Assembly: GCA_016212705.1 (NCBI GenBank)
Contig: JACREU010000006.1
Location: 25,030 to 89,029 of the forward strand
Length of the DNA stretch: 64,000 bases
Origin: Deltaproteobacteria bacterium
GTDB taxonomy: Bacteria > Desulfobacterota > GWC2-55-46
Direction: 5' to 3'
Both the position numbers and the translations under genes were made by a program. A model generated the notes under the pieces. That model ran no database searches and was not told the DNA's origin. It worked only from the letters and a program-made list of their open reading frames with translations. Within the stretch, counting starts at the first letter, position 1. Every line of letters starts with the position of its first letter. Below are positions 8,892 through 29,732 of this stretch, piece by piece.

Positions 8892-9806
8892 TTAGACCGT
8901 CGGTCTGAATATGAAGTAGGCCGCGATGTGCAGGAACATTATAAAGAACATCAGTAGGGCGAGCGGTATATGTATCACATGCCAGTAGTTGAGGAGCTTT
9001 TGCGAGGTTTTCAGGAAGCTCCTTTTCCTTACGAGCGATGCCTTCTTTTTGAAGACCGAGATTATCTCGCGGCGCGCACTGCCCGGGAGGTTGTATTGGC
9101 TTTTGAGCTTCGATTTCAGCTCGAAGATACGGTACATGTTCCCGAAGTCGTTCCGGATGTAGAAAAAGAGCGCCTTTAAGGGATTCAGGTCCGTTGCCCC
9201 CGCGCCAGGCGCGATTATCTTCTCCAACATACCCGAGAGCTTGGCGTCCGGCAACATCTCTCCCAGGTCCTTGTCCAGCCCCTCGACCATGGAATCTATA
9301 TCGCCAGACTTGAGCTCCGTGCCGTTTATCGAGCGAGGTATCTGGACATAGATGTACCTGCCCAGTATGCCGAAGCACATCGTGGTGATCATCGCCCAGA
9401 AGCTCGTGGCCACTATGCCGTTGAGTTTGAAGGTGGTATGGAAAACGATAAGCGTGGGCCCCATGAGACCAAGAAATATATGGACGAGGAGCCATATCCT
9501 TAAGGAGCCGAGACGGTTTAAATGGTGCACCCTTTTTCGGAGGCTGTAGAGCATGAGAGAGCACATCATCGCGCCGCCCAGCCACCCCAGGGGGAGCCAT
9601 ATGCCACGGCTCGGCCTGTGCAGGGCCGGGAAAGAGATGAGGAGGCCGCTTCGATGTAACGCGCTCAGGATACTGTACGCGGGGTAATAATGTTGCGTCA
9701 GGCTCTCATAGCCCAGGATGACGATGGCCGTTGAAATTGGGACTATGAACAGCCACTTTACGATAGAGCCTTTTTTTGCCTTTTTGGAATCCGATTTTTT
9801 GTCCAT
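8892..9806 (-). CDS. integral membrane protein (about 5 TM), putative dihaem cytochrome-b-like electron carrier
   Basis: Start taken at MDKKSDSKK (ATG 9806). Two H-x13-H pairs lie in hydrophobic helices (HIFLGLMGPTLIVFH and HIPLALLMFFIMFLH). The stop is 4 nt before the 26-haem cytochrome gene. Confidence 0.7.
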   Translation of the reverse strand: MDKKSDSKKAKKGSIVKWLFIVPISTAIVILGYESLTQHYYPAYSILSALHRSGLLISFPALHRPSRGIWLPLGWLGGAMMCSLMLYSLRKRVHHLNRLGSLRIWLLVHIFLGLMGPTLIVFHTTFKLNGIVATSFWAMITTMCFGILGRYIYVQIPRSINGTELKSGDIDSMVEGLDKDLGEMLPDAKLSGMLEKIIAPGAGATDLNPLKALFFYIRNDFGNMYRIFELKSKLKSQYNLPGSARREIISVFKKKASLVRKRSFLKTSQKLLNYWHVIHIPLALLMFFIMFLHIAAYFIFRPTV

Positions 9807-9966
9807 GCCTCTTACCCTTCTACAACGTATAAACAACTTATATCAGCCTGAAGGTTAAGACTTTATTAAATCCTGGGATCCAAGACCCGAAGGGCTCGGC
9901 CCGCTTGCCTGCAATCGGCCCGGAAAAATCACAAGCCTTTGATATTTTTGCATTTTTGTGATTTTA

Positions 9967-14510: not shown

Positions 14511-16667
14511 TCAGCAAGCCTCTTTGAGCGCCTCCTCGATTACGACCATGTTCTTGCCCCTGTTCTTCGCCCTGTATAGGTTGTCGTCAGCGGCCTTTAT
14601 GAGGTCTTCCATCGTCCTTATCTCCTCGGACGGGAAGAACCCTATGCCGATCGATACGGTCACCTTCCGGCCGTTCATGCCTGAGAACATATTCTCTTCG
14701 ACCGCCTTCCTCACCTTCTCGGCGAGGACCACCATCCCGTCCGGCGGGCAATGAGTGACGAACCCCATGAACTCCTCGCCGCCGTAGCGCGCCCAGACGT
14801 CCGTAGTACGGGTCTTTGCCTTGAGTATGCCGGAGAGCTCGGCGAGTATCCTGTCCCCCTGCTGGTGCCCGAACGTGTCGTTTATGGACTTGAAGTTGTC
14901 TATGTCTATCATCATTACGGCGAGCTGGTGGCGGTAGCGCTTGGCCTTTGAAAACTCCGCCGAGAGCACGTCGAAGAGGTGTCTCCTGTTGTACAGCCCG
15001 GTCAGCGGGTCCGTGACCGAGAGCTTCTCAAGCTCCTTGTGGATGAGCGCGTTGTCGAGCGCGATCGCTATCTGGGCGACGAGATACTCTATGTGAAGCA
15101 CCTCATCGGGGTTATAGGGGTGCAGACTGCCGAGGACGAATACCCCCGAGAGCTTCTCCTTGCAGATCATGGGGAACCAGGCGAGCCCTGACGGCATTAT
15201 CTTCGTAAACCCCGTCTCTACCGAGAGGTTCGCGTCATTTATGCCCTCAAGGAGAACGGTCTTCCTTTCGAGCGCGCACTTTCCGGCGAGCCCCTCGCCG
15301 AAGTTCAAGGTCCTCACCTCTCCCTCGCCCGCGCCGAAGGAGGCGACGGGTTTCAATAACTCGTTAGCCTCGTCGTGTATGTAGACGGCCCCCATGTGCG
15401 AGTTCGTGAGCTCTATAGTGCGCCCGAGCGCCTTTCTGAGGAGCGCCTCCGGCTCGTTGCTCTGGATGAGTATCTTCGAGAGCTCGTTGAAGCGGTTGAG
15501 CCTTTTCTCCCGGAGCTGTATGGAGCCGAGCATCTGGTTGAACCCGTCGGCTATCTTTTCGAAGTCGTCACCTGTACTTACCTCCACCCTGACGTTCAGG
15601 TTCCCATTCGCGGTCTCGTCCATCGCGGAGGTGATGGCGCTTATGGGCTTTACCGTGTCCCGGTAGGAGAGGCCGGCGAATATGAGGCTGAATACGACCC
15701 CGAGGCAGGTGACGAGGAGTATGTTCTTCTTCATCTCCACGAGGTTGTGCCTTACCTCGGACCCGAATATGCCTACGGCGAGCGCGCCGACGACCTTTCC
15801 GTCGGCTCTTGTGAGCGGCTCGATGGCGAGGAACGCCTCAACCCCTTCAAGGAGTGTCGCCCCGGCGTACGGGACGTTACTCAGCACCTTCGCCCCTATG
15901 TCTTCGGGGAGCGCCGACATGGGGCCTAAGACGGGCCTTGAGACCGACGTAGAGGCTATTACGCGCGCCTCCCTCTCGGTGTCCGCGATTATGGCCGATG
16001 TCACGTTATAGTTCTCGTATATGGCCCTCGGCAGCCATTCGTACCCGTTAAGGAGTATACCGGTTACGAACGCGCCCGAAGACCTCCCGCCGTTTACAAC
16101 CGGGGTCACCGCTATCTGCATGAGGGCGCCGCCTTCGACCCCGGATGCGAGCTCCGCGCCCTCCTTTGCAAGGAAGTCCCTTGTAACCGTCTCCGTGGAG
16201 GTGACGGGCTCTGCCGAGGACAGCGCCCTTGCGACTATGCCGTTCACATCGAGGATGTCGCCGGTCCTGCCGTTCCTCCTCGCGATGACGCGCCCGTCCG
16301 GGCCGACGACGGCCCAAAGGTCGACGTAGCCCCTGGAGGCGGCGTACCCGTCAAGGAGCTTCTTTAGCCCGGCGGAATCCCGCCTCGCGACCGCCTCCCT
16401 TACGGCCTCCTCGGACCCTGCCTGCAACATGCCGAGCTTCATCTGCTCCATCCTCATCTGATAGAGGCGTAGCGCCCCCTTGAGGTTGGATTTGAGCGAA
16501 TCGACGGCCTCCCTGTCAGTCTCTCTTGAGAGGGTATGGGTGGCGTAATAATAGAAACCCCCGCCGAGGACCGTGATTATGAGGAGGAATGCAAGGAGGG
16601 TCTTGGTGGCTATCGACATGGGGACCCTCCAGCCCCCCAATTTGACCTTATAGACCTTTTCCGGCAT
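14511..16667 (-). CDS. diguanylate cyclase with periplasmic sensor domain, HAMP, GAF and GGDEF domains
   Basis: 718 aa. TM - ~280-aa extracytoplasmic region - TM - HAMP - GAF-like - GGDEF with intact RYGGEEF. AAGGAG ribosome-binding site before ATG 16667. Confidence 0.88.
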   Translation of the reverse strand: MPEKVYKVKLGGWRVPMSIATKTLLAFLLIITVLGGGFYYYATHTLSRETDREAVDSLKSNLKGALRLYQMRMEQMKLGMLQAGSEEAVREAVARRDSAGLKKLLDGYAASRGYVDLWAVVGPDGRVIARRNGRTGDILDVNGIVARALSSAEPVTSTETVTRDFLAKEGAELASGVEGGALMQIAVTPVVNGGRSSGAFVTGILLNGYEWLPRAIYENYNVTSAIIADTEREARVIASTSVSRPVLGPMSALPEDIGAKVLSNVPYAGATLLEGVEAFLAIEPLTRADGKVVGALAVGIFGSEVRHNLVEMKKNILLVTCLGVVFSLIFAGLSYRDTVKPISAITSAMDETANGNLNVRVEVSTGDDFEKIADGFNQMLGSIQLREKRLNRFNELSKILIQSNEPEALLRKALGRTIELTNSHMGAVYIHDEANELLKPVASFGAGEGEVRTLNFGEGLAGKCALERKTVLLEGINDANLSVETGFTKIMPSGLAWFPMICKEKLSGVFVLGSLHPYNPDEVLHIEYLVAQIAIALDNALIHKELEKLSVTDPLTGLYNRRHLFDVLSAEFSKAKRYRHQLAVMMIDIDNFKSINDTFGHQQGDRILAELSGILKAKTRTTDVWARYGGEEFMGFVTHCPPDGMVVLAEKVRKAVEENMFSGMNGRKVTVSIGIGFFPSEEIRTMEDLIKAADDNLYRAKNRGKNMVVIEEALKEAC

Positions 16668-16932: not shown

Positions 16933-18366
16933 TTACTGAGGCTTCGAGGCCTTGATATGGTGGAGGGCCTTCTTTGCGACTATCTCAGCGTACCTTACGC
17001 TGTCGCTTATGCCTATGCCGTGGTAGGCGGACCCGACGAGGTAGAACCCGGGGTACCCGGCGACCCGCTCATCTATCCAATCGATCCTCTCTTCGTGCCC
17101 TATGGTGTACTGCGGCATGGAGTTCATCCACCTGAATACGCGCGTAAGCACAGGCTCGGCGTCTATGCCCATGATGTCTTTTAATTCCTGCCTTACGGAC
17201 CTTATCATCTCCTCGTCGCTCGCGCCGAGGAGCGAGGAGTCCTTGGAGCCGCCGACGAAGCACCTTATGAGGACGGAGTCGTCAGGGGCGCGAAGGCTGA
17301 ACTTGACCGAGGTCCATGTCGCGGCCATTATCTTCCTCTTCTCGACCTTCGGGACGACGAACCCGAAGCCGTTCAGGGGGTGTTTTATGTCTTTTTTCCT
17401 GAATGCTATGGATACCGTCGCCGTGGAGACATAGGGGATGGTGAGGAGCTTACCCGGGAGATCCTTATCGAACTTTACAAGAGAGGCGGCGGCGTATGCG
17501 GGCGCGGCAATGACTACGGCGTCGGCGGCGATTTTCTCGTTGCCTTCGATCGTTATCTCATAGGCGTCCGCCTTGCGCTCGACCCCTGAGACGTTGACGC
17601 CGGTCGAGACGACGGTATCTTTCGAGGAGGAGACCTTCTCTTGCAGGGTATCTATGAGAGAGCCGAGGCCGTTCTTCAGGGTCATGAACATCGTGACCCT
17701 CTTCTTTGGCGCACCGGCCGCCGTCTTGTGGGTTTTCTTCAAAAGCTCCATCTTTTTCAGCATCCCCTTTATGAGGGAGCCGTAGTCCTCTTCGAGCTGG
17801 ACGAACTTCGGAAAACTCGCGCGGACCGACATCGTCTCAGGGTCCCCGGCGTGAACGCCCGCGACAAGCGGCTCGGCGATCTTCTCAAGCGCCTCGGCCC
17901 CGAGCCTCCTCCTTACGAAGTCGCCGAGGGACTCGTCCCCCTGCCCCTTCCTCTTCGGCACGAAGAGCTCCAGGGCCATCCTTATCTTTCCGGGGACGGA
18001 TATGAGGCTCGATGTGGCGAGCGGCAGTATCTTCGTGGGGACCATGAGGATAACGCCTTCCGGCAGGACGTGGAGCTTGCCGCGCGAGAGCACAAAGGTC
18101 TTCCTGTTCCGCTCGTTCGTCGGCAGGAGCTCGTCGCCGAGCCCCACCCTCTTGCAGAGCTCCATGGCCCAGGGTTTTTCGGAGAGGAAGCAGTCCGGGC
18201 CGCCCTCTATGAGGAAGCCGTCCGCGCGCTCTGTCCTGATGTTCCCGCCGAGCCTGTCCTTCCGCTCGATAAGCCTTATCTCGAATGGCGCGTCGGAGTG
18301 CTCCCGGAGGCTGTACGCGGTGGCGAGCCCGGCGATCCCGCCGCCTATTATGACGACCCTCTTCAC
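16933..18366 (-). CDS. hemY: protoporphyrinogen/coproporphyrinogen oxidase, HemY type (FAD-dependent)
   Basis: GTG start at 18366 overlaps the hemH stop (GTGA). VVIIGGGIAGLATAY FAD motif. The 82 upstream codons of the ORF model lie out of frame inside hemH. Confidence 0.88.
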   Translation of the reverse strand: MKRVVIIGGGIAGLATAYSLREHSDAPFEIRLIERKDRLGGNIRTERADGFLIEGGPDCFLSEKPWAMELCKRVGLGDELLPTNERNRKTFVLSRGKLHVLPEGVILMVPTKILPLATSSLISVPGKIRMALELFVPKRKGQGDESLGDFVRRRLGAEALEKIAEPLVAGVHAGDPETMSVRASFPKFVQLEEDYGSLIKGMLKKMELLKKTHKTAAGAPKKRVTMFMTLKNGLGSLIDTLQEKVSSSKDTVVSTGVNVSGVERKADAYEITIEGNEKIAADAVVIAAPAYAAASLVKFDKDLPGKLLTIPYVSTATVSIAFRKKDIKHPLNGFGFVVPKVEKRKIMAATWTSVKFSLRAPDDSVLIRCFVGGSKDSSLLGASDEEMIRSVRQELKDIMGIDAEPVLTRVFRWMNSMPQYTIGHEERIDWIDERVAGYPGFYLVGSAYHGIGISDSVRYAEIVAKKALHHIKASKPQ

Positions 18367-19286
18367 TGCCTCCGTTCGCCGTGGCTTACGATAGTGGACG
18401 CGAGGAGCTCCATGAACGCGGGAGCGGTGTTCAGAGAAGCGCTCCTCCTGAATACGAGCCCCGAGGACTCGGCTATGCCCTTGAAGAGTATGTCTATGTC
18501 GTAGAGCGTCTCTATGTGGTCGGCTACGAACCCGACCGGCACAACGACCACGCCCTTCTTGCCCATCTTCTTCGCGCCCTGTATCACGTCTTCGGTCGAT
18601 GGCCCGAGCCACTCCCTCGGCCCCGCGCCCTTGGACTGGAAGGCCACCTTGTAGTCAATCTTTACGCCCATCCTCTTTACTATTTCCGAGACCGACTGGT
18701 TGACGAGCATCTCATACGGGTCGCCCTCGAGCCCGACCCACGGGAGGCTGTGCGAGCTGAAGATGACGAGCGCGTCCTTCGGGTCATTGAAGGAGGCGAG
18801 CTCTTTTTTGACGTTCCCGGCGACGGTCTCAAGGAACTGTGTCTTAAGATGGAAGCTCGGCGTTACCACGACGAACGGCGTCTTGCCCTGTTCCGAGAGA
18901 GCGCCCTCGACGTCGGAGTTGTACGCGCCTGTGGCCACGAGCGACACGAACGGCGCCATTATGACGGCTACCGCGTCCGTCACGCCGTCCTCCTTCATCT
19001 GCCGGAGCGTGTCCTTTATGAAGGGGTCCCAGTAGCGCATACCGACGTAGGCCTTGTAATCGAGCCCCTGACTTGCGATGACCGCCCTGATTGATTCCGC
19101 CTGGGCCCTTGTCAAGTCGAGGAGCGGGGACTTGCCGCCTATGAGCTTGTATCTTTCCTTTATCTTTTCCACGAGCTCAGGGGTAACGGGCCTGCCCTTG
19201 AGGACGTTCCTTATGAAAGGCTCCACCGAGTCGATAGAGTCCGCCCCGCCGAATGCGAGGAGGAGAAATGCCTTCTTCTTTTCCAT
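18363..19286 (-). CDS. hemH: ferrochelatase
   Basis: 307 aa. N-terminus AFLLLAFGGADSIDSVEPFIRNVL..GRP and later SSHSLP..GDPY motifs. GGGAGGAG ribosome-binding site. Confidence 0.9.
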   Translation of the reverse strand: MEKKKAFLLLAFGGADSIDSVEPFIRNVLKGRPVTPELVEKIKERYKLIGGKSPLLDLTRAQAESIRAVIASQGLDYKAYVGMRYWDPFIKDTLRQMKEDGVTDAVAVIMAPFVSLVATGAYNSDVEGALSEQGKTPFVVVTPSFHLKTQFLETVAGNVKKELASFNDPKDALVIFSSHSLPWVGLEGDPYEMLVNQSVSEIVKRMGVKIDYKVAFQSKGAGPREWLGPSTEDVIQGAKKMGKKGVVVVPVGFVADHIETLYDIDILFKGIAESSGLVFRRSASLNTAPAFMELLASTIVSHGERRQ

Positions 19287-19299
19287 TGTCTTCTCCTCC

Positions 19300-20328
19300 C
19301 TATTTACCGCTGAACTCGTGTACGGCGTCGACTACCGCCCTAACGCTGTCGACCGGGGTGCCGAGAACGATGCCGTGGCCGAGGTTGAATATGTGCCCCG
19401 CCCTGCCTCCCGCCATGTCTACTATCTCTTTTACGCGCCGCCTTATCTCCTTTACAGGGCCGAAAAGGACGACCGGGTCAAGGTTCCCCTGTATAGCATG
19501 ATCGTAACCTATGGTCTTCCACGCCTCGTCGAGCCTCACCCTCCAGTCCACCCCTATGACGTCGCCGCCGCCCTCGGCGACGAGGTTAAGGAAAGTCCCG
19601 GTGTTGGTCCCGAAGTTTATGACAGGGACCGTGCCCTTAAGTCTTTCTATCACCTTTTTCGTGTACGGGAGCGCGAACTCCCTGAAGTCGTCGGGCCCCA
19701 GGCATCCGACCCAGCTGTCGAAGAGCTGTACGACCTCGGCCCCGGCCGCGATCTGGGCCTTCAGGTACGCGACGACGACGTCGGAAATTTTGTCCATGAG
19801 GGCCTTCCAGCCCTCCGGGTCGCCGTACATGAGCTTCTTTGTGTTGACGTAGTTCCTCGACCCCTCGCCCTCTATTATATAGCTCGCGAGCGTAAAGGGC
19901 GCGCCCGAGAAACCGATGAGCGGCACCTTGCCGGCGAGCTCGGCCTTTACCATCTTTATCGCCTGCATGAGGTATGGGACGTGGACCTCGGGGTCTATCA
20001 TCCTGACCGCGTCTATGTCCTTCCTCGTCCTCACCGGGTTCCTTATTACGGGCCCCTCGTTCTTGGCGAATTCCAGCTCTATGCCCATGCCGGGCAGAGG
20101 CAGGAGGATGTCCGCGAATATGATGGCGGCGTCGAGATCAAAGGCCTTGATGGGTTGCAACGTCACCTCCGCCGCGAGCTCGGGGTTCCTGCACATCTCC
20201 AGGAACGAGTGCTTCTCCCTTATGGCCATGTACTCCTTCATGTACCGGCCCGCCTGGCGCATGAGCCAGACCGGGGTGCGGTCGGATGTCTCCCTCCGGC
20301 ACGCCTTTAAGAACCTGTCGTTCGCCAT
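19300..20328 (-). CDS. hemE: uroporphyrinogen decarboxylase
   Basis: 342 aa. RTPVWLMRQAGRYMKEY signature. GAGGAG ribosome-binding site. Confidence 0.93.
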   Translation of the reverse strand: MANDRFLKACRRETSDRTPVWLMRQAGRYMKEYMAIREKHSFLEMCRNPELAAEVTLQPIKAFDLDAAIIFADILLPLPGMGIELEFAKNEGPVIRNPVRTRKDIDAVRMIDPEVHVPYLMQAIKMVKAELAGKVPLIGFSGAPFTLASYIIEGEGSRNYVNTKKLMYGDPEGWKALMDKISDVVVAYLKAQIAAGAEVVQLFDSWVGCLGPDDFREFALPYTKKVIERLKGTVPVINFGTNTGTFLNLVAEGGGDVIGVDWRVRLDEAWKTIGYDHAIQGNLDPVVLFGPVKEIRRRVKEIVDMAGGRAGHIFNLGHGIVLGTPVDSVRAVVDAVHEFSGK

Positions 20329-20423: not shown

Positions 20424-20452
20424 ATTATATTTGCAAGCGCGGCTTTTTTCAA
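20424..20452 (-). promoter_or_regulatory. sigma70-type promoter for hemE-hemH-hemY
   Basis: The minus strand reads TTGAAA (20452-20447), a 17-nt spacer, then TATAAT (20429-24), about 95 nt upstream of the hemE ATG. Confidence 0.55.
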
Positions 20453-20524: not shown

Positions 20525-20553
20525 TTCACATTCAGGACCTTTTCCGATATAAT
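20525..20553 (+). promoter_or_regulatory. sigma70-type promoter for the cytochrome cluster
   Basis: TTCACA (20525-30), a 17-nt spacer, then TATAAT (20548-53). A second candidate, TTGAGA-N18-TATAAG, lies at 20585-20614. Confidence 0.55.
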
Positions 20554-20673
20554 GCGGGAACTTTCTGCCCCGGTTAGAATCCGCTTGAGATTCAAGCCGT
20601 TCCTCCGATATAAGGATATAGGCCGGGCCCGGCGCAGGCTTTACGAGGCAGGGACTTTACGAGGCGGTATTGG

Positions 20674-21264
20674 ATGCGGAACCCAGGTTTTGTAAAAAGG
20701 GCCTTCAAACTCAAGTTTGGACTCAACTTCTGCATCCTTACCGTCGCGGGGATGTCCGCGGCCACCTTTTTCATCTACCTCATGACCGCAAGGAGCCTCG
20801 GGGACTCTTACGGTAGCGCCATATACGCCATCTACGACTTGAAGATACGCATATTCCCGCTCATCTTCGCCTCGTTCTACTCCATATTCATCCTCGCGCT
20901 CATAACAGGCGCCATAGCGCTCATCTCGCTCTTCTTCACGCACAAGATAGCCGGCCCCATATTCAGGATAGAGCGGAACCTCGACGCCATCTCGGGCGGG
21001 AACCTGACCGTCAACACTAAATTCAGGGGCAACGACCAGCTCGAGGCGCTCGCCGACGACATAAACGAGATGGCCAGGTCGCTGAACCATAAGGTAAGGT
21101 CGTCGCGCGACGCCCTCGCCGAGATAGAGAGGTGCGAAGAGAGGCTTTACGCCCTCGTAAAAGACGACTCATCGAGCGAAGATGATATCTCGAAGGCGCT
21201 TAAAGAACTGAAGGCCGGCATAGATGGGCTTAAAAAGGCCGCTTCCGGCATTAAGGTAATATAG
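20674..21264 (+). CDS. small 2-TM HAMP-domain membrane protein (no output domain), paralogue 1
   Basis: 196 aa. Two TM helices with a ~20-aa loop, HAMP (HKIAGPIFRIERNLDAISGGNL...LADDINEMARSLN), coiled-coil tail. Confidence 0.8.
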   Translation: MRNPGFVKRAFKLKFGLNFCILTVAGMSAATFFIYLMTARSLGDSYGSAIYAIYDLKIRIFPLIFASFYSIFILALITGAIALISLFFTHKIAGPIFRIERNLDAISGGNLTVNTKFRGNDQLEALADDINEMARSLNHKVRSSRDALAEIERCEERLYALVKDDSSSEDDISKALKELKAGIDGLKKAASGIKVI

Positions 21265-21265
21265 T

Positions 21266-22057
21266 TTGAAAACCAATATACCGATCATACTCTCGGTCCT
21301 CCTATTGACGGCGGCAAGCTACGTTTTCTCCCAGTGGACCAGCTACCATAACTTCGAGTCCAAGTGCCTGGACTGCCACATTACCGTCCCGCAGAAGGGT
21401 GACACACCCCAGGCGTTCACAAAAGACATCACCGTCATGTGCACCGGTTGCCACAAGGACTCCGAGAAGCTCTCCCACCCCGTGGGCATGAAGCCTTCCA
21501 TGAAGGTCCCCTCGTCCTTTCCGCTCGACTGGAAGGACGAGATGACCTGCATCACCTGCCACACCGTACACGACAAGGGCCACGGGGACTTCCATATGCG
21601 TTCCAAGGCCTCCGGCGAGGGGCTCTGCACGCTCTGCCACGTGGACCTCGAGGCCGAGATGCACAAGATATCCGTGGGCACGGCGCATGTATCAAGCTCC
21701 ACCGGGACCAAGTACATAGCGGACGACCTCGGCGCCGTACTCGACGAGCTTTCGATAAAGTGCCTCGCCTGCCACGACGCGACGATCGCCAAGGACACGC
21801 TTGTCGAGAGTACCGTGGACATCTTCCACAACGCCAACTCCATAGGCGTAAGCCACCCCATAGGCGTCTCTTACGCCGAGACAAAGCGCAAGTACATGGG
21901 CGCGTACAGGGACATTGACGAACTGCCCCCCGAGATAAAGCTCTTCGGAGGGCTCGTCGGGTGCGGCAGTTGCCACAACCCGTACTCCAAACAGCACAGC
22001 GAGCTCGTCATGTCGAACGAAAAAAGCGCCCTTTGCCTCGCCTGCCATGTTAAGTAA
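21266..22057 (+). CDS. heptahaem c-type cytochrome
   Basis: 7 CXXCH (CLDCH, CTGCH, CITCH, CTLCH, CLACH, CGSCH, CLACH). TTG start 1 nt after the HAMP gene stop. Signal or anchor MKTNIPIILSVLLLTAASYVFS. Confidence 0.88.
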   Translation: MKTNIPIILSVLLLTAASYVFSQWTSYHNFESKCLDCHITVPQKGDTPQAFTKDITVMCTGCHKDSEKLSHPVGMKPSMKVPSSFPLDWKDEMTCITCHTVHDKGHGDFHMRSKASGEGLCTLCHVDLEAEMHKISVGTAHVSSSTGTKYIADDLGAVLDELSIKCLACHDATIAKDTLVESTVDIFHNANSIGVSHPIGVSYAETKRKYMGAYRDIDELPPEIKLFGGLVGCGSCHNPYSKQHSELVMSNEKSALCLACHVK

Positions 22058-22171
22058 GGGCGCGCGCGGCAGATAATAATTAATGGCGGGTTAAGGGCTG
22101 TTTAATGTGGTTGGTTTATATTTTCGGCAAGGTTGATTGAAGGATGTATTTATGTTAACCTCAAGAGGCCT

Positions 22172-22753
22172 ATGAGCGCAAATGCCTTTCCCAAGTACCG
22201 CAGGCGCAGTTTCTTCATCAAGAAGAGGCTCCAGGGGCGGTTCATAGCCGGGTTCTCGATCGCCGTGTTTCTGGGCTATTTTCTGAACCTCCTCCTTGTT
22301 TATTTTTTAATTGACAGGGAATTGACCTCGGAGTTATATAGAATCCATCTGAGGATAAGGACGACCTCCGAGATAGCCGTCCCGATCCTCTGGAAGTTAA
22401 GCCTCATAATCATACCGCTTATCATCGTCATCTCGGCGGTCCTCGGGTATGTCCTTACGCGGAGAGTGGAACTGCCGCTCCTAAAGTTCAAACAGGCCTT
22501 GAAGAAAACCGCCGAAGGGGATTTTACGTCCCGCCTCATGGAAGACAAGGTCGCCGTCGGGCTTTCAGAGGCGTTCAACGCGATGACAGCCTCGCTCTCC
22601 GTCCCCTTCAGCTCATTGAAAGAGTCGGCGGAAAGGCTCGACGAGGCTTACGGGAGGCTTGAAAAGAAGCCGGGCGGCCTCAAGCGCGCGCTCGGCGGCA
22701 TCACCGAGGCGCGCATAAAGACCGAGAGGGCGCTCGACAAGCTCAAGGTCTGA
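22172..22753 (+). CDS. small 2-TM HAMP-domain membrane protein, paralogue 2
   Basis: Start at ATG 22172 (AAGAGG upstream); the ORF model starts at TTG 22133. Same architecture as 20674..21264, with a similar basic N-terminus (FIKKRLQGRF versus FVKRAFKLKF). Confidence 0.78.
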   Translation: MSANAFPKYRRRSFFIKKRLQGRFIAGFSIAVFLGYFLNLLLVYFLIDRELTSELYRIHLRIRTTSEIAVPILWKLSLIIIPLIIVISAVLGYVLTRRVELPLLKFKQALKKTAEGDFTSRLMEDKVAVGLSEAFNAMTASLSVPFSSLKESAERLDEAYGRLEKKPGGLKRALGGITEARIKTERALDKLKV

Positions 22754-22763
22754 ACGGGTCTTG

Positions 22764-22792
22764 AAAGGCCCGGCGGTTAAACCGGGCTTTTT
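22764..22792 (+). terminator. intrinsic terminator inside the cytochrome cluster
   Basis: AAAGGCCCGG-CGGTTAAA-CCGGGCTTTTT, 11 nt after the HAMP-2 stop. Confidence 0.6.
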
Positions 22793-22951
22793 CGAAAACG
22801 CGTCGGGCGGAGCGAAACCGTCAGAGCCGTAAATTACCGGTCTCATCATCCCGGCCCCTCCACAATGCGGCCCGGGACGGCCAGCTCATGTCGATCGCCT
22901 GCGCGGGCCGTACTTACGGCCCGCCTAACCACGAACGAACGGAAAGGGACT

Positions 22952-24082
22952 ATGCGCCATCTAAAAACAGCCATCGGAATCGCGGCCGCGGCCTTAACAG
23001 CCGGGTCGTTCCTCATCGGAGCAGAGGCGCGCTCCGAGAACTGGGCGGGCTTTCTGAAGACCCCGGCGCGCTCATCCTACGTCGAACGAGCCGTCCAGCC
23101 GCCGCTCTCCCTTAAATGGAGGTTCGAGACAAAGGGGCCGGTATACTCGTCCCCGACCGTCTTCGAGGGCAAGGTCTTCGTCGGCTCGTATGACAAGAAC
23201 CTCTACGCCATAAACGCCGAGACAGGCAAGAGCGCCTGGTCGTTCGCGACTGACGGCGAGGTATTCTCGTCGCCTGCCGTCGAGGGCGGAAAGGTCTTCT
23301 TCGGCTCAAAGGACGGCTTCGTCTACGCCATCGAGTCAGCCACGGGCGCTCTCGCCTGGAAGCACAAGACCGACGGCAGGATACTCACCTCGCCGACGGT
23401 CTCGGAGGGGCTCGTCTTCATCGCCTCCAACGACCTCTACCTCTACGCCCTTAACGTCTCGGACGGCAAGAGGGCCTGGAGGATGAAACTCCCGGATTAC
23501 GACAAGTACAGCGGGGTATACGCCTCCCCGGCCTACGCCGACGGCTCCATATTTATAGCGGGCAAGAACGGCATAGTCTACTCCGCCTCGGCCAAAAGCG
23601 GCGGCAGGCACTGGTCCGCGAGGACGGATTCCGCCGTCTACGCGACCCCGGTCGTAAAGGACGGCATCGTATACGTGGCCTCCTTGTCCAGGAACTTCTA
23701 CGCAATAGACGCCAAGACAGGCAAGTTCGTCTGGAGGAGGGGGATCTCAACGGAGATGATCTACGCTACCCCGGTCGTCGCCCGTGACCGCATATACATA
23801 GCCTTCAAGAGCGGGCACATAAGGGCGTATAACAGGAACGACGGGGCAGAGGTCTCCGACTGGCAGTTGCCCGCCGAGATAAACTCAACGCCTGTTGTAG
23901 CGGGCAACGGGACGGTATACGCGGGCGCCGGGGACGGCAACGTCTACGCGCTCGACGCGAAGACCGGCTCCATACTCTGGAAGTACGCCACAGGCGGCGG
24001 GATACACTCCTCCCCCGCCGTGGTCGACAATAACCTCTACATAGGCTCCGGGGACGGGTCGGTCTACGCCTTTTCGAAATAG
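22952..24082 (+). CDS. secreted PQQ-like (BamB-type) beta-propeller repeat protein
   Basis: Start at MRHLKTAIGIAAAALTAGSF (ATG 22952, GGAAAGGGA upstream). About 8 repeats of the G.vYaldaktGk..W pattern. Confidence 0.85.
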   Translation: MRHLKTAIGIAAAALTAGSFLIGAEARSENWAGFLKTPARSSYVERAVQPPLSLKWRFETKGPVYSSPTVFEGKVFVGSYDKNLYAINAETGKSAWSFATDGEVFSSPAVEGGKVFFGSKDGFVYAIESATGALAWKHKTDGRILTSPTVSEGLVFIASNDLYLYALNVSDGKRAWRMKLPDYDKYSGVYASPAYADGSIFIAGKNGIVYSASAKSGGRHWSARTDSAVYATPVVKDGIVYVASLSRNFYAIDAKTGKFVWRRGISTEMIYATPVVARDRIYIAFKSGHIRAYNRNDGAEVSDWQLPAEINSTPVVAGNGTVYAGAGDGNVYALDAKTGSILWKYATGGGIHSSPAVVDNNLYIGSGDGSVYAFSK

Positions 24083-24117
24083 GCGCAAGACCGGGTGTTC
24101 CGGAAAAACACAGGAAA

Positions 24118-24726
24118 ATGAAGATGTCAAAAAGAATCCAAGCCCTTATAAGACCGCTCATGGCCGGGGGGCTGATACTTTTCGCGGCAGTCTCGTCTTA
24201 CGCGGCCGAGAAGTCCGAACTGCCCAAGGAGACCCCGCCCCCTTACGAGAGGAGCGAGGCCCTCTCCACGATAATCAACCCCCACGAGCAGATAAACGAC
24301 GAGGGGGAGGTGCTCTGGGGTACGTGCCTCATCTGCCACAAGAACGTCCCCGACGTCCAGAAGGAAAAGTCCATCAAGGACGTAAATCTCCGCTTTGACG
24401 AAGACCCGAATCAGCTCTGCAGGCAGTGTCATACGGTCAGGGCCCACCCCGGGTCCGAAGGCGTGAGCGCGACGATGAGCGGCTATGTGGCGCCCGACCA
24501 CCTTGTGGTCCCTTCCAAGAACATAATAATGAGCCTCCGGCTCGCGAAAAAGGAGATACCGTTGATACTGCCTCTGGACCCGAAGTCCGGCAAGATCATC
24601 TGCTCCACATGCCACAACCCGCACGAGAGGGGTCTCCTCGTCGGCAGGGCCGACTGGGGCGGCGATTACAGCATGAGGCTCCGCTCCGCGGGCCTCGACA
24701 TCTGCCAGTACTGCCACAGGAAGTAG
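24118..24726 (+). CDS. tetrahaem c-type cytochrome
   Basis: CLICH, CRQCH, CSTCH, CQYCH. Signal peptide ending SSYAAE. Confidence 0.88.
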   Translation: MKMSKRIQALIRPLMAGGLILFAAVSSYAAEKSELPKETPPPYERSEALSTIINPHEQINDEGEVLWGTCLICHKNVPDVQKEKSIKDVNLRFDEDPNQLCRQCHTVRAHPGSEGVSATMSGYVAPDHLVVPSKNIIMSLRLAKKEIPLILPLDPKSGKIICSTCHNPHERGLLVGRADWGGDYSMRLRSAGLDICQYCHRK

Positions 24727-24884
24727 ACCTGGGCACCTGCCGGAGAGATGGGGGGGAGGGGGGGCGCTCCTACGCAGGTCCTTCTTAAATGAACTTATCG
24801 TAATCAGGCGCGCGGCGGAATCGGCCGGCGTCGCGCCATGCGCGCCTTTGTTAAAAACGTCTTGACCCGTCACCACGGACCATT

Positions 24885-25943
24885 ATGACTGACGCAAAGA
24901 GGATAATGACATCAAGGGTGTTCCCCCTCTTCGGGGCCATGTTGCTCCTCCTCGTACTGCTTTCCGCGTGCGCAACGACGGAGAACGAGGTCAGGGAGAC
25001 GGCCACTACCCCGCAGAAGCCCCTTATATGGCCCTCCCCGCCCGAGCCCGCCAGGGTCTCCTGGTCCAAGGCCATATCGAGGCCTGAAGACATAGGCGCT
25101 AACAAGGGCTTCTTCAGGAAGATCGCCGAGTTCCTCCTCGGCCCCAGGGCCGACCAGATGGTCAAGCCCTACGGCATAACGGTCGATTCGACAGGACGGA
25201 TAATCGTCGCGGACACCGCGCTCAAAAGACTGCACGTCTACGACGCCAAAAAGAACAAGTACTCCTTTATCGAGGAGACCGGGGACGACAACCTGGAATC
25301 CCCCATAGCGGTCGCGGTCGACGCCGAGGACAACATATACGCGACCGACTCGGTCAAGAACAAAGTCCTCGTCTTCAACTCCAAGGGCAAGTACCTTTAC
25401 GGGTTCCCGGCGGGAAAAAGGCCTACGGGTATCGCCGTCGACAAGGCTGAAAAGACCGTTTACGTAAGCGACACCGCGAGGCACGAGGTCGCGGTCTACG
25501 ATTTAAAGGGCAGGCTCCTTAAGGCCATCGGACGCTGGGGTAACAAGGCCGGCGAGTTCAACTACCCGGTAGACATATTCATAGACAAGCACGGCGAGCT
25601 CTTCGTCGCCGACACTATGAACTACAGGATACAGATATTCGGGAAAAACGGCCAATTCCTCTCCATGTTCGGACGCCACGGCGACGGCACCGGAGACTTC
25701 GGCAGGCCCAAGGGCGTCTCGGTCGACAACGAGGGGAACATCTACGTAGCGGACGCCATCTTCGACACGGTCCAGATATTCGATAGAAATGGGAATTTTC
25801 TCCTGAACTTCGGACGCCTCGGCAGGGAATACGGCTCGTTCTGGCTCCCCTCCGGGGTCTTCATAGACAGCGCCGACAAGATATACGTATCGGACTCCTA
25901 CAACAAGCGCATTCAGGTCTTCGAGTATCACGGCCACATCTAA
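24885..25943 (+). CDS. NHL-repeat six-bladed beta-propeller lipoprotein
   Basis: Lipobox LLSAC. Repeated NHL units (P.giavD..gniYVaD..n.riqvF...G.fl..fG). Confidence 0.85.
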   Translation: MTDAKRIMTSRVFPLFGAMLLLLVLLSACATTENEVRETATTPQKPLIWPSPPEPARVSWSKAISRPEDIGANKGFFRKIAEFLLGPRADQMVKPYGITVDSTGRIIVADTALKRLHVYDAKKNKYSFIEETGDDNLESPIAVAVDAEDNIYATDSVKNKVLVFNSKGKYLYGFPAGKRPTGIAVDKAEKTVYVSDTARHEVAVYDLKGRLLKAIGRWGNKAGEFNYPVDIFIDKHGELFVADTMNYRIQIFGKNGQFLSMFGRHGDGTGDFGRPKGVSVDNEGNIYVADAIFDTVQIFDRNGNFLLNFGRLGREYGSFWLPSGVFIDSADKIYVSDSYNKRIQVFEYHGHI

Positions 25944-25982
25944 AGCACAAAAACACTTTTTCGGGAAGTGAGCTGGTTAAAG

Positions 25983-28250
25983 ATGAGGCACCCCAACGTG
26001 GAATGGCTTTCAGGGTTGATCTCCCGTATTCCACTCTATTCATTTTTCAGGCGGACCGGGTACAGGCTCCCCGTCATGGCAACGGCAGTGGCCGCAAGCG
26101 CCGCGTACATCGTCTTATCCGCCGCGCCTTCGCCGGCGACGGTAGCCGGCACCAAGCACAACTTCGGCCTCCTCTCCTCCGGCAACGTTAAATCGGCGGA
26201 TACGAGCGAGGTCTGCGTCTTCTGCCACACCCCCCATAACGCGCTACCCGCGAGCCCCGGCTGGAATAAACAGGACACCGGCGCCACGTACAACGTCTAC
26301 GAGAGCCAGACGCTCGCGGCCACCAAGAGCCCGAACGCCCCCGCGCTCGGTCAACCGACGGGGTCTTCCAAGCTCTGCCTGTCCTGCCATGACGGCACTA
26401 TCGCCATAGGGTCGCTCCTCAACCTCCCCGGCGCCGCGACGTCCGGCACCGTAGACGTTACGGGCGCGGGCATCCTCGCCGGGAAGATAAGCTCGACATC
26501 GACCGCCTACATAGGGACGGATCTTAAGGACGACCACCCGATATCATTCGAGTACTCGCTCGCGTACCCGTCCAATACCGAAATAAAAGACAATACGACG
26601 CTCCCCCCGGAAGTAAGACTCGACTCCTCCAACATGGTGCAGTGCACGAGCTGTCACGACCCTCACGGGACCGCGTTCCCCAAATTCATGGTGGCGAGCC
26701 TCTCTAACGGCGGACTCTGCACGAACTGCCATGACAAGCGGTACTGGACGACGATGCCGTCGATACACCAGACATCCACCGCGATATGGAACGGCTCGGG
26801 GGTAAACCCATGGCACGAGGACATGGGGTCAGTCGGCTACTCTGACGACACGCCAGCTTCGCAGAGCTGTCTCGCCTGCCACCGCTCCCACGGCGGGGCG
26901 CCGGGAAAGACGCTCCTTAAGGGGACGGACCCCGGAAGCGGACAGATAGTCGACGAGGAGTACACCTGCCTTAACTGCCATAACGGGAACGTGGCAACGC
27001 TGAACATGGACTCGCTCTTCAACTACACGTACAAGCATGACGTCAAGGGGACCTACGGCGCGCACCTGCCTTCAAGGGGGGCCGCCGGAGAACCGGCGAG
27101 GGAGTCCGCCTCCAACCTCGGGACCAACAGGCACGCCGAGTGCGCCGACTGCCATAACGGCCACGGCGTAAAGTCCGGCAACCACACAGTCGGCGGCACG
27201 AACGGCAACATCATCGGGGCGAACCTCCTCGGCGGCTGGGGCGCCAAGCCCTCTCCCTGGGGGACGGCCGGGAACTCCGCGCTCGTTTATACCGCGGTGG
27301 ACTTTACGACGCAAACGCCGGGGGCCGACAACCTCGAAGGCTATCTCTGCGTAAAATGCCACTCCTATTACTCTTACGGGGCGCTGCCTCCGAACGTCCC
27401 GTCCGGCAACGCCGACGGCTCCATAGTCTCCGAGTCCGACATAACGGCCGACATGAACATAAACAACATGGCCTTCCACCCGGTCTTCGCCCAGGGCAAG
27501 AACCAGCCGACGGTCGTTGCCAACCCGAACTGGCCGGCGAACAGCCTCGGGCTCACAAACACCTTCAGGTACATGGACTTCCCCGGCTTCGGCGCGAGGA
27601 CCGGCTTCTACAATGTGACGCACGATTCCACCATCACCTGCTCCGACTGCCACGGGTCGCACAGTTCCTCGGACCCCAAGGGACCCCACGGCTCAAGCGA
27701 AAAATGGGTCTTGCGGAGAAACGAGACCGGGTCCGGCACCCTCGTCAACTTCTGCTATAACTGCCACAGACGCGAGGTCTACGGCGACGAGAATTATATA
27801 AGCGCCGCGACCGACGGAAACGGCAAACTGCTCCGCGACTACGCGAGAGTAACCCACCCGGTCGACGGGCTGAGCGGGTGCCCCGGGGTCAACTGCTCGC
27901 CGTTTTACGCAAGCGGGGCCTCCACCGGGAATAGCGGAAACAAGTTCGGCATCCTCTGCCTCACCTGCCACGGCGGGGCCTACGACTCAACGACCAACGC
28001 TATGAAGGGCATCCACGGCTCGAACATGGCCGCAGGGACCCAGGCCGGCTCGGACGCGCTCGGATACAGGATGATGAACGGCGCGTGCGTGGAGTCCTAC
28101 ACGCGTCCGACGACGCTCCAGGCCGCGCAGATGTGGTTCAGGACAGTGACCCCGGCGACCGACAAGGTCTGCAACTACAACTTTACGTCCTTCACAAACG
28201 GGAACGCGGCGAACTATAACTGCAACACCATAGGCGACTGCTCTAATTAA
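25983..28250 (+). CDS. large undecahaem c-type cytochrome with paired-CXXCH pattern and low haem density
   Basis: 11 CXXCH (CVFCHTPH, CLSCHDG, CTSCHDPH, CTNCH, CLACHRSH, CLNCHNG, CADCHNGH, CVKCH, CSDCHGSH, CYNCH, CLTCHGG) in ~755 aa. The start is uncertain (GTG 25968, ATG 25983 or ATG 26076). Confidence 0.85.
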   Translation: MRHPNVEWLSGLISRIPLYSFFRRTGYRLPVMATAVAASAAYIVLSAAPSPATVAGTKHNFGLLSSGNVKSADTSEVCVFCHTPHNALPASPGWNKQDTGATYNVYESQTLAATKSPNAPALGQPTGSSKLCLSCHDGTIAIGSLLNLPGAATSGTVDVTGAGILAGKISSTSTAYIGTDLKDDHPISFEYSLAYPSNTEIKDNTTLPPEVRLDSSNMVQCTSCHDPHGTAFPKFMVASLSNGGLCTNCHDKRYWTTMPSIHQTSTAIWNGSGVNPWHEDMGSVGYSDDTPASQSCLACHRSHGGAPGKTLLKGTDPGSGQIVDEEYTCLNCHNGNVATLNMDSLFNYTYKHDVKGTYGAHLPSRGAAGEPARESASNLGTNRHAECADCHNGHGVKSGNHTVGGTNGNIIGANLLGGWGAKPSPWGTAGNSALVYTAVDFTTQTPGADNLEGYLCVKCHSYYSYGALPPNVPSGNADGSIVSESDITADMNINNMAFHPVFAQGKNQPTVVANPNWPANSLGLTNTFRYMDFPGFGARTGFYNVTHDSTITCSDCHGSHSSSDPKGPHGSSEKWVLRRNETGSGTLVNFCYNCHRREVYGDENYISAATDGNGKLLRDYARVTHPVDGLSGCPGVNCSPFYASGASTGNSGNKFGILCLTCHGGAYDSTTNAMKGIHGSNMAAGTQAGSDALGYRMMNGACVESYTRPTTLQAAQMWFRTVTPATDKVCNYNFTSFTNGNAANYNCNTIGDCSN

Positions 28251-28349
28251 AAGGGGCGGGCATGAAAAGGCGCAGGGTATTCTGGCCCAGGTTAAAAACG
28301 ACAAGCCCGCTTTCATGGCGGAAGGGGCTAAAAACCTCCCGGGATTAAT

Positions 28350-28802
28350 ATGAAGAAGACACAATCGGGCCTCACCCGCTCCGTGCCGGCGGCGTTCCTT
28401 TCGGCGAAGATATTTTTTCCGGCAACGGCCGCGCTCTTTTTACTGCTGGTAATAATGCCGGGCCCTTCCTCATCCGAGGAAGGGCGGGCCGCCGAGAGCC
28501 CGCACGACTTTTCCAGAAAGGAGTTCTGCTCGGTCTGCCACAAGGCCGAGCCTCCGCTCCTTAACCTCGACCCGGTCACCACCTGCACGAAGTGCCATCC
28601 GGGGAACGTCGGGAACCACCCGGTGACGAGACACCCCATAGGCAAGATGCCGAGGATACGGGTGCCCGCGTCCCTCCCCCTGACCGATGACGGGGAGATG
28701 GTCTGCTACACATGCCACGAGCCGCATAACAAGTCCAGGCACGGCAAGATGCTCCGGGTCGATTTCACTAAACTCTGCGCCTCGTGCCATGCCGGATATT
28801 GA
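28350..28802 (+). CDS. tetrahaem c-type cytochrome
   Basis: CSVCH, CTKCH, CYTCH, CASCH. N-terminal hydrophobic anchor. Confidence 0.88.
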   Translation: MKKTQSGLTRSVPAAFLSAKIFFPATAALFLLLVIMPGPSSSEEGRAAESPHDFSRKEFCSVCHKAEPPLLNLDPVTTCTKCHPGNVGNHPVTRHPIGKMPRIRVPASLPLTDDGEMVCYTCHEPHNKSRHGKMLRVDFTKLCASCHAGY

Positions 28803-28826
28803 CGGAAGAACTAACGGAGGTAGGAA

Positions 28827-29675
28827 GTGAGAAGTAAAGTTATCGTAAGGCCGCTCGCGGTCCTCGTTGCCTTTGCCGCGTCCGCAGTAATCGCGTCCAG
28901 CGCCCTGGCGCAGGGCGACGTCACGAAAGAGACGGACTTCAGGAAGATAAAGCCGCCCTCCGCCCACGGCACGGTCCTCATGAACAGGTCCACCGCGTCC
29001 TCGACAGAGGTGAAACCCGTCGTATTCCCGCACTGGGCGCACAGGGACAAATACTCGTGCAAGGCGTGCCATACCGACATCGGCTTCAAGCTCAAATCCA
29101 ACACGACGGGCGTTACGCAAGCCGACATCGAGGCCGGCAAATACTGCGGCGAGTGCCATAACGGCAAGGCCGCGTTCGCGGCGACCGAGTGCGGCCGTTG
29201 CCACTCATACGGGCTTGACGCCAGGGAGAACAGGAAGTTCGAAGACGCGGTAAAGGGCCTGCCGGCAGACCACTTCGGCAATAAGGTCGACTGGGTAAAG
29301 GCGCTCGCCGAAAAGAAGATAAAGGCCGGGCCCTTGCCTGGCGGCAAAGACGATCTGCAGTCCCTCGACCTCGACATAATAATACCGGCGGCGAAGTTCG
29401 CGCCTCACCCGCCGGACGTCAAGTTCCCGCATAAGCCCCACACCGACCAGATCGACTGCGCCACCTGCCACACCGCCATATTCAAGCAACAGAAGGGCGG
29501 CAACCCCGAGATGAACATGATGAAGATAATCGCCGGCCAGTACTGCGGCGTCTGCCACACAAAAGTAGCCTTCCCGCTCGACGACTGCTTCAGGTGCCAC
29601 TCCCAGCCCGCCCCTAAGGCCGAGGAGCCGGAAAAGGACAAGAAGGACGTGAATACGCCGGCGGATAAGCAGTAA
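28827..29675 (+). CDS. hexahaem cytochrome, two tandem c7/c3-like trihaem modules
   Basis: CKACH, CGECH, CGRCH and CATCH, CGVCH, CFRCH. Each module starts with FPH..H and contains YCG.CH. GTG start with GGAGG upstream. Signal peptide ...SSALAQG. Confidence 0.88.
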   Translation: MRSKVIVRPLAVLVAFAASAVIASSALAQGDVTKETDFRKIKPPSAHGTVLMNRSTASSTEVKPVVFPHWAHRDKYSCKACHTDIGFKLKSNTTGVTQADIEAGKYCGECHNGKAAFAATECGRCHSYGLDARENRKFEDAVKGLPADHFGNKVDWVKALAEKKIKAGPLPGGKDDLQSLDLDIIIPAAKFAPHPPDVKFPHKPHTDQIDCATCHTAIFKQQKGGNPEMNMMKIIAGQYCGVCHTKVAFPLDDCFRCHSQPAPKAEEPEKDKKDVNTPADKQ

Positions 29676-29702
29676 GGATTTTGAATATCAAACCTGAACC
29701 AA

Positions 29703-29732
29703 AGGCGGGTGGGAGACCACCCGCCTTTTTTA
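29703..29732 (+). terminator. strong intrinsic terminator ending the cytochrome cluster
   Basis: GGCGGGTGG-GAGA-CCACCCGCC followed by TTTTTTATTT. Confidence 0.88.

Follow-up and report, generated by a model that had tools for sequence, protein, structure and literature searches.

The nine genes considered here lie in a 64-kb stretch (the window, to whose 64 kb all statements about it refer) of the 126,678-bp contig JACREU010000006.1, part of a groundwater metagenome-assembled genome (MAG) of a Deltaproteobacteria bacterium. Nine co-oriented open reading frames (ORFs) occupy positions 20674-29675 of the forward strand, with a promoter on their 5' side and a terminator on their 3' side. In order they encode a small HAMP protein (HAMP1), a heptahaem cytochrome (cyt7), a second HAMP-like protein (HAMP2), a pyrroloquinoline quinone (PQQ)-repeat beta-propeller, a tetrahaem cytochrome (cyt4a), an NHL-repeat beta-propeller lipoprotein, an undecahaem cytochrome (cyt11), and further tetrahaem and hexahaem cytochromes (cyt4b and cyt6). 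ORF calls and a motif count bear out an initial annotation made from the letters of the sequence, which had listed nine genes with 7+4+11+4+6 = 32 CXXCH motifs in five c-type cytochromes; no CX3-4CH or CXXCK variant haem motif occurs in the nine genes. Pfam, lipobox and hydropathy likewise agree with its two propellers, one PQQ-like and secreted and the other an NHL lipoprotein, and with its two HAMP proteins of two transmembrane (TM) segments each, the HAMP match of the third ORF being weak. The remaining seven proteins each carry an N-terminal hydrophobic segment.

Composition of the cluster

The 760-residue cyt11 falls into three parts: an OmcE-type tetrahaem module (residues ~42-257), a family core with six more haems (~258-610), and a clade-specific tail that holds the eleventh haem (~610-760). 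Residues 42-257 match the OmcE filament subunits of Geobacter sulfurreducens (7TFS, E 2e-22) and D. soudanensis (9YUQ, E 2e-23), and a profile built from 30 members of the cyt11 family matches the same two structures at E 1e-39 and 3e-34, with only a weak match to OmcS (5e-6). The OmcE ligand set, four CXXCH motifs plus H64, H90, H190 and H233, is conserved in 46-47 of 47 sequences, namely the cyt11 module, Geobacter OmcE and 45 small OmcE-like proteins of related loci; cyt11 itself keeps all eight haem-ligand residues, including the histidine of the N-terminal TKH. For the remaining ~500 residues, PDB searches with the single sequence and with the profile found no solved relative by sequence. 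The ~560-590-residue homologues of other phyla are without the C-terminal tail, of which the stretch at 27900-28250 of the window (residues ~645-760) has conserved Cys707 and Cys735 and a Cys-rich end, NYNCNTIGDCSN.

All 11 CXXCH motifs and 12 further histidines are invariant across 30 cyt11 homologues, down to 38% identity, and exactly 11 CXXCH motifs are present in 79 of 85 homologues. Bis-His ligation of 11 haems would take 11 of these 12 histidines, leaving one to spare. An OmcE subunit donates one histidine to a haem of its neighbour (PMC9473688). Going by these counts, the spare histidine of cyt11 could belong to a capped unit with one His free for docking. No free gene for an OmcE-like subunit of ~220-240 residues is present in the window or in the barrel-less loci of its own clade described below, where the module occurs only fused inside the 760-residue protein. 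The fusion of an OmcE module into an NHL-paired undecahaem, which recurs across phyla, appears to be undescribed.

The two propellers have different affinities. The NHL lipoprotein encoded upstream of cyt11 is homologous over its full length (E 2e-64) to the NHL lipoprotein encoded next to omcE in G. sulfurreducens. In the PDB the PQQ-repeat propeller matches BamB (E 1e-34), with PQQ dehydrogenases matching in fragments only; it scores 205 bits against the BamB family TIGR03300, below the 285-bit cutoff, and 108 bits against PQQ-enzyme families whose cutoff is 480. By these scores it is BamB-like and no quinoprotein dehydrogenase. Among the loci examined its gene is confined to the window's clade and the type-A relatives described below.

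The hexahaem cyt6 matches TIGR04257 (nanowire_3heme) in two stretches (E 4e-38) and the periplasmic dodecahaem GSU1996 (PDB 3OV0) at E 1e-40, and is probably a GSU1996-like periplasmic relay. A PDB search found no significant relative of cyt4a. The cluster proteins score far under the cutoffs of the MtrC and DmsE families, in one instance 38.7 bits where the cutoff is 192.

In both HAMP proteins a short periplasmic loop joins two TM helices, and a conserved SH(K/R)IAGP motif and a coiled coil are present; neither protein has an output domain. The match of HAMP1 to Pfam HAMP has E 4e-7, and its stop codon abuts the cyt7 start. For HAMP2 the assignment is backed by NCBIfam matches over the HAMP region and by alignment of its orthologues, which keep the N-terminus RRRxYFIxKxLQ. 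The trio, with overlapping stop and start codons, also stands beside NHL-undecahaem pairs in other genomes (L-numbers denote loci of relatives compared with the window): in a gammaproteobacterial MAG (L021), in Nitrospirota MAGs (L064, L069), and in L028 and L073, in all of which a HAMP1 orthologue with SH(K/R)IAGP adjoins cyt7. Between the HAMP proteins, cyt7 has a weak N-terminal match to NrfH (E 1e-6; 29 bits against a family cutoff of 134) and is a candidate inner-membrane-anchored entry or exit point for electrons. No such trio was found in the literature searched, and it seems to be undescribed.

Table 1. Features of the window, with positions counted from its first nucleotide
Feature	Position	Strand	Remarks
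tRNA gene	801..882	+	sole Rfam match in the window
678-aa cytochrome	6851..8887	-	21 CXXCH; repeated c7-type trihaem units
314-aa His-rich protein	8892..9836	-	multi-TM; no Pfam match
sigma-54 activator (response regulator) and HAMP histidine kinase	11153..14250	-	between 21-haem locus and GGDEF gene
dCache-HAMP-GAF-GGDEF diguanylate cyclase	14511..16667	-	beside hemY
divergent haem-biosynthesis operon	16933..20328	-	hemE 19300-20328, hemH 18363-19286, hemY-like oxidase 16933-18612
promoter-like site TTGAAA-N17-TATAAT	20424..20452	-	divergent, facing hemE; 11/12 positions; region alignable with L001, L003
sigma-70-type promoter TTCACA-N17-TATAAT	20525..20553	+	11/12 consensus positions
HAMP1, 196 aa	20674..21264	+	2 TM segments (15-39, 56-93), HAMP domain, coiled coil, no output domain
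cyt7, 263-aa heptahaem c-type cytochrome	21266..22057	+	7 CXXCH, 7 conserved distal His, one N-terminal hydrophobic helix (3-23)
HAMP2, second 2-TM HAMP-like protein	22133..22753	+	weak Pfam HAMP match, E 0.006
intergenic hairpin and T-run, possible attenuator	22761..22795	+	dG -17.6 kcal/mol, z -2.8; not conserved
eight-bladed PQQ-repeat, BamB-like beta-propeller	22865..24082	+	Pfam PQQ_2 E 6e-56; secreted, non-lipoprotein
cyt4a, 202-aa tetrahaem cytochrome	24118..24726	+	4 CXXCH, 4 conserved distal His, signal peptide
NHL-repeat six-bladed beta-propeller lipoprotein	24885..25943	+	Pfam NHL E 3.5e-36; lipobox LLSAC
cyt11, 760-aa undecahaem cytochrome	25968..28250	+	11 CXXCH; three parts
cyt4b, 150-aa tetrahaem cytochrome	28350..28802	+	4 CXXCH, 4 conserved distal His; Pfam Paired_CXXCH_1 E 9e-9
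cyt6, 282-aa hexahaem cytochrome	28827..29675	+	two c7-type trihaem domains; signal peptide ending ALA|Q
intrinsic terminator ending the cluster	29701..29728	+	12-bp stem, 8 GC pairs, T-run
389-aa Porin_4/OprO-P-like porin	52351..53520	-	only porin-like ORF in the window
PAS histidine kinase	53521..55275	-	one periplasmic CXXCH (possible haem sensor)
response regulator with HD-GYP	55394..56473	-	

Relatives with and without a barrel

One genome per species was scanned for cyt11 homologues, and 85 loci were then examined. At least 590 loci, spread over more than 12 phyla, encode a relative of cyt11; the hosts include Thermodesulfobacteriota, Gamma- and Betaproteobacteria, Nitrospirota, Bacteroidota, Ignavibacteriota, Calditrichota, Verrucomicrobiota, Planctomycetota and Myxococcota. 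In 77 of the 85 loci the gene just before that of the undecahaem encodes an NHL protein, a small OmcE-like tetrahaem gene is present in 41, and many have a second NHL gene. A hidden Markov model (HMM) found, in 59 loci, a protein of ~650-700 residues with an aromatic C-terminal residue and no Pfam match, which modelling (below) predicts to be an outer-membrane barrel. Published omcE clusters of Geobacter and Desulfuromonas comprise two multihaem cytochromes, two beta-propeller lipoproteins, OmcE and a large beta-barrel (10.1101/2025.10.22.684050, Petersen et al.), a description that the NHL/undecahaem loci with a small OmcE, a second NHL and a barrel match. One locus, L013, holds a second NHL and cyt11-like pair (1-6313, minus strand) in opposite orientation beside a cluster without the HAMP trio, accompanied by a c7-type cytochrome and two TPR proteins.

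Closer to the window, the order of the nine genes recurs in MAGs with a cyt11 58-91% identical to the window's, down to and including the downstream DHH-CBS-CCA gene, and three of these loci (L001, L003 and L012) also keep the haem-biosynthesis genes hemEHY upstream, which L008 and L010 do not. The neighbourhood is thus conserved, and the initial annotation's proposal of a cytochrome and propeller cluster that plausibly transfers electrons is supported. None of the five complete loci of this clade has a porin at the locus.

In relatives whose cyt11 is 44-53% identical, the same nine genes in the same order are preceded by a barrel gene directly upstream of HAMP1. This ten-gene arrangement (barrel, HAMP1, cyt7, HAMP2, PQQ-propeller, cyt4a, NHL, cyt11, cyt4b, cyt6) is here called type A, and the same set without the barrel, as in the window, type B. 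L091 is an exact type A cluster, and L089, L090 and L007 are type A with one or two extra genes. The barrel family was searched for with two HMMs (from alignments A3 and A4), which found no member in a six-frame translation of the 64-kb window and none within 10 kb in the five complete type-B loci. The initial annotation's statement that the cluster has no porin-like ORF therefore stands, and the thought that a porin might always accompany the cluster in relatives proved right for the four type-A loci and the 59 NHL-undecahaem loci of the wider family, but not for every relative. One porin-like ORF of the window, the 389-residue Porin_4 protein of Table 1, was considered as the missing porin and rejected: it belongs to a general-porin family unrelated to the cluster barrel, and lies 22 kb away, sharing its operon with genes for a histidine kinase and an HD-GYP regulator.

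The protein of ~650-700 residues found in the 59 loci was modelled from an alignment of 62 sequences at a predicted local distance difference test (pLDDT) of 92, with ~32 long antiparallel strands. The best PDB matches of the model in Foldseek are all outer-membrane barrels: Cir, MtrB (E 7e-8), LptD, FimD and SprA. The barrel of the type-A loci and that of the other phyla are homologous (hhalign probability 99.2%, E 8e-20); the L007 and L021 barrels, for example, are dissimilar pairwise, yet clearly homologous when profile is compared with profile. The 752-residue barrel of the G. sulfurreducens omcE locus showed no similarity to the family (hhalign probability 2%), a comparison of a single sequence with a profile that is not conclusive. 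SurA-type peptidyl-prolyl isomerase (PPIase) and TPR genes lie near the type-A clusters L007 and L089, and the flanks of L007, L089 and L091 hold FGE-sulfatase-domain paralogues, a fusion of major facilitator superfamily and spermine synthase domains, glycosyltransferases and long TPR proteins, which recall the glycosylation island beside omcE in Geobacter (L088, 13196-20699).

In the cyt11 tree the type-B clade is nested within a grade of type-A loci, and the barrel-less state is therefore derived: the window's clade, on this tree, is taken to have lost the barrel gene at the locus. One assembly, GCA_040961595.1, contains both a type-B locus (L003) and a type-A locus (L089), which would allow a barrel to act in trans. 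When the L007 barrel was used as the query of a word-indexed homologue search, only five matches came back, none of them on the 2.59-Mb contig of GCA_001595385.3, a result that does not prove absence there.

Described systems and the proposed electron path

The initial annotation held that the composition and gene order match no described system. That view has to be given up in light of the OmcE-type module, the homology with the NHL lipoprotein of the omcE locus, and the published NHL/multihaem clusters omcE, uet, occ and DFE. With the omcE cluster, the nearest of the systems compared by sequence, the window has in common the OmcE-type tetrahaem fold, a homologous NHL lipoprotein, additional multihaem cytochromes, and adjacent genes for haem synthesis or cytochrome maturation, which also adjoin the cluster in L005, L006 and L088. 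The omcE cluster, however, has a free OmcE subunit of ~230 residues, whereas the window has the module as the N-terminus of a 760-residue undecahaem; it has a large barrel gene at the locus, which the window does not; and a PQQ-repeat propeller stands in the window in place of the second NHL. The window adds the HAMP-cyt7-HAMP trio and a c7-type hexahaem, and is without a glycosylation island. Because it has two of the defining features of an omcE cluster (the OmcE fold and the NHL lipoprotein) and lacks two others (the free subunit and the barrel), it is a variant within the broader OmcE family and is not filed as an omcE cluster.

The comparisons with uet, occ, DFE and fox genes are made with their published descriptions. 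The uetABCDEFGHIJ cluster of Tenderiales and Gallionella (10.1101/2022.05.06.490989; PMC9900912) matches in composition, with an undecahaem next to NHL genes, c7-type trihaem domains, tetrahaems and a large barrel in relatives, and ccsAB follows the undecahaem in L006 as it does in uet. The barrel UetC, the PPIase UetB and the cupredoxin UetF have no counterpart in the cluster or in the rest of the window, which in turn has a HAMP trio and a PQQ propeller, neither reported for uet; UetJ is annotated as a pseudogene at NCBI (10.1101/2022.05.06.490989). The DFE_0448-0451 and DFE_0461-0465 clusters of D. ferrophilus (PMC5815863; PMC9769857) resemble the window in interleaving multihaem cytochromes with NHL propellers and in having no recognisable porin, but differ in gene number and order, with no HAMP proteins or PQQ propeller reported. 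The occA-S genes of 'Ca. Dechloromonas occultata' (10.1101/695007) are likewise a multi-cytochrome cluster with an undecahaem (OccP) and mention of an NHL protein, but number 19 and encode an undecahaem of 922 residues; the cluster is expressed, and OccP is predicted to be extracellular (10.1101/695007). The MtrCAB, Pcc and Ext systems share with the window a common logic of quinol oxidase, periplasmic relay and outer-membrane cytochrome, and the type-A barrel resembles MtrB in fold class, though with ~32 strands against 26. These systems are without propeller lipoproteins, and the window is without a barrel or any MtrA- or MtrC-family protein.

OmcE-type loci are thought to move electrons to or from the cell exterior. 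The nine genes are best read as a derived, barrel-less copy of the OmcE/NHL/undecahaem cluster for extracellular electron transfer, in which the outer membrane would be crossed through a barrel encoded elsewhere; we put the probability of this reading at about 0.6. From the predicted localisations we infer the following order of carriers, in either direction of flow. With an N-terminal helix as its anchor in the inner membrane and a translationally coupled HAMP protein on either side, cyt7 would exchange electrons with the quinone pool; that HAMP1, cyt7 and HAMP2 form an inner-membrane complex joining this pool to a periplasmic relay is the least supported step of the scheme. Cyt6, cyt4a and cyt4b would pass electrons across the periplasm, and the NHL lipoprotein would hold cyt11, with its OmcE-type N-terminal module, at the outer membrane. 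The crossing itself would most likely use a family barrel of ~32 strands encoded at another locus, as GCA_040961595.1 may illustrate; in a genome without any such barrel, the chain would end at the inner face of the outer membrane.

Several points weigh against this reading. The function of the clade is read from sequence, its expression, localisation and activity being predictions, and the type-A cluster or family barrel elsewhere in the source MAG is presumed, the window covering 64 kb of the 126.7-kb contig. The coexistence of both types is seen in one MAG only, which could be a binning chimera. The inner-membrane placement of cyt7 comes from hydropathy and an NrfH match far below threshold. 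An AlphaFold2 model of cyt11 from a 30-sequence alignment reached a pLDDT of 45, unusable for a fold search or for assigning haem ligands, so the haem-ligand wiring proposed for the protein is deduced from counts. In D. ferrophilus, moreover, deletion of comparable cytochrome genes left Fe(III) oxide reduction intact (PMC9769857).

The alternatives are taken here in order of falling probability. A network confined to the periplasm has something to recommend it: the barrel is absent, cyt6 is homologous to the periplasmic GSU1996, and all five cytochromes have complete sets of His ligands of their own. Cyt11 would then be tethered by the NHL protein on the inner face of the outer membrane, and the set of 32 haems would act as a capacitor or take part in redox reactions of soluble substrates that enter the periplasm. 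Elsewhere, however, the OmcE-type module and its NHL partner are accompanied by a barrel and an extracellular filament subunit (10.1101/2025.10.22.684050), and the retention of a 760-residue undecahaem alongside a lipoprotein of the outer membrane speaks for a function at that membrane. We regard the periplasmic network as rather unlikely.

It is also conceivable, though unlikely, that the conduit is independent of any porin, with the two propellers organising cytochromes at or across the outer membrane and cyt11 exported to the cell surface through a general pathway, for instance type II secretion. For the DFE clusters, Deng et al. had already suggested a scaffolding role for the NHL propellers, which could steady cytochrome complexes of the outer membrane in the manner of barrels in other systems and might take a barrel's place (PMC5815863). 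The barrel searches, empty in the type-B loci and over the whole window, fit this proposal, as does the stable inheritance of the type-B arrangement across 58-91% identity. Yet the ancestral form of the nine genes has a barrel gene, as do 59 loci in the family at large; neither a soluble propeller nor one anchored as a lipoprotein can span a membrane; and the one assembly with both types suggests that a barrel is possibly available in trans.

Whether cyt11 polymerises through its OmcE module, to give an extracellular filament with a seven-haem side domain on each subunit, is a separate matter that is compatible with the other readings and that we consider doubtful. All eight OmcE ligand residues are conserved, including the TKH histidine, one histidine of OmcE binds a haem of the next subunit, and the type-B cluster is without a separate small OmcE gene. 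But 12 invariant histidines for 11 haems fit a closed, capped unit better than an open-ended polymer, the separate small OmcE-like gene beside the undecahaem in other phyla suggests distinct roles for the two proteins, and the model of cyt11 is of no help.

A redox-sensing module, with cyt7 as the sensor and the HAMP proteins signalling to partner kinases or cyclases, is very improbable. Two HAMP proteins are present, the surroundings include genes for a dCache-HAMP-GAF-GGDEF protein and a HAMP histidine kinase, and the GGDEF gene is a neighbour in L001 and L006 as well, but the HAMP proteins are without an output domain, 32 haems and two propellers would be excessive for a sensor, and the trio is always found inside electron-transfer loci. 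Least probable of all is an Fe(II)-oxidation module like foxEYZ, suggested in the initial annotation by the pairing of a cytochrome with a PQQ-like propeller: a PQQ-repeat propeller gene does adjoin a small cytochrome gene, but the propeller is BamB-like with PQQ-enzyme scores far below cutoff, no FoxZ-like transporter ORF is found among the nine genes, and the other genes place the locus with the OmcE/NHL family.

Transcription, neighbouring genes and implications

The near-consensus promoter of the initial annotation agrees with the consensus in 11 of 12 positions, and its hexamers recur 5' of HAMP1 in L001 (again 11/12), with the near-match TTCACA-N16-TATACT in L003. The strong closing terminator holds up as well (dG -24.2 kcal/mol, z -5.6, none of 200 shuffles as stable). 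An internal terminator had also been proposed to divide the genes into two transcription units. The hairpin is there, but the division is weak because the hairpin is modest, was not picked up by the terminator scan, and lies in a gap that has no counterpart in relatives, where the HAMP2 and propeller genes abut (with a gap of 10 nt in L001). One operon is more likely than two units, and the cluster is probably co-transcribed. The probable true starts are at 22172 for HAMP2 and 22952 for the propeller; the cyt11 start is uncertain.

The hemEHY operon is transcribed divergently from the cluster, as had been noted; strand and Pfam matches agree (URO-D E 4e-139 for hemE, Ferrochelatase E 3e-81 for hemH, Amino_oxidase E 1e-57 for the hemY-like gene). 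Protein accessions run consecutively from MBI4948635 (hemE) through MBI4948641 (NHL) to MBI4948648 (TrpS), a spacing that fits an annotation of nine genes between hemE and the DHH-CBS-CCA gene. GEMM-type cyclic-dinucleotide riboswitches precede some Geobacter cytochrome genes. This type was considered too, and neither an Rfam scan of the whole window nor a permissive scan of the 5' leader found a riboswitch.

The 314-residue membrane protein is encoded directly upstream of the 21-haem cytochrome on the same strand, and the two may form a second quinol:cytochrome module, of cytochrome-b type. The diguanylate cyclase gene beside hemY is found in L001 too (1-803), and a similar GGDEF gene lies near the NHL-undecahaem pair of the unrelated L006 (18548-20668); this recurring neighbour hints at a link with cyclic di-GMP. 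The sigma-54 activator and HAMP histidine kinase genes separate the cyclase gene from the 21-haem locus. The sensor kinase and the HD-GYP response regulator listed at the end of Table 1 lie beside the porin.

How cytochrome nanowires are anchored, initiated and exported is an open question (10.1101/2025.10.22.684050). The locus bears on this question, with a full OmcE module fused into an 11-haem protein that travels together with an NHL lipoprotein in more than 12 phyla. The near-constant NHL pairing, the full OmcE module and the one spare invariant histidine allow a speculative proposal, to which we attach little confidence: the cyt11 family would be a membrane-proximal base or cap for OmcE-type filaments, barrel-free in the window's clade, and the trio an as yet unrecognised inner-membrane quinol:cytochrome module. 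At the least, the HAMP-cytochrome-HAMP trio is a candidate inner-membrane partner. Three features of the locus appear to be new: the barrel-less type-B architecture beside hemEHY, the fused OmcE undecahaem with its NHL protein, and the HAMP trio. Methods that call extracellular electron transfer by its porins would miss such loci in groundwater Thermodesulfobacteriota. Loss of the barrel with the nine genes kept in order offers a natural comparison of type A with type B, sometimes in one genome, from which the respective contributions of barrel and propellers may be judged.

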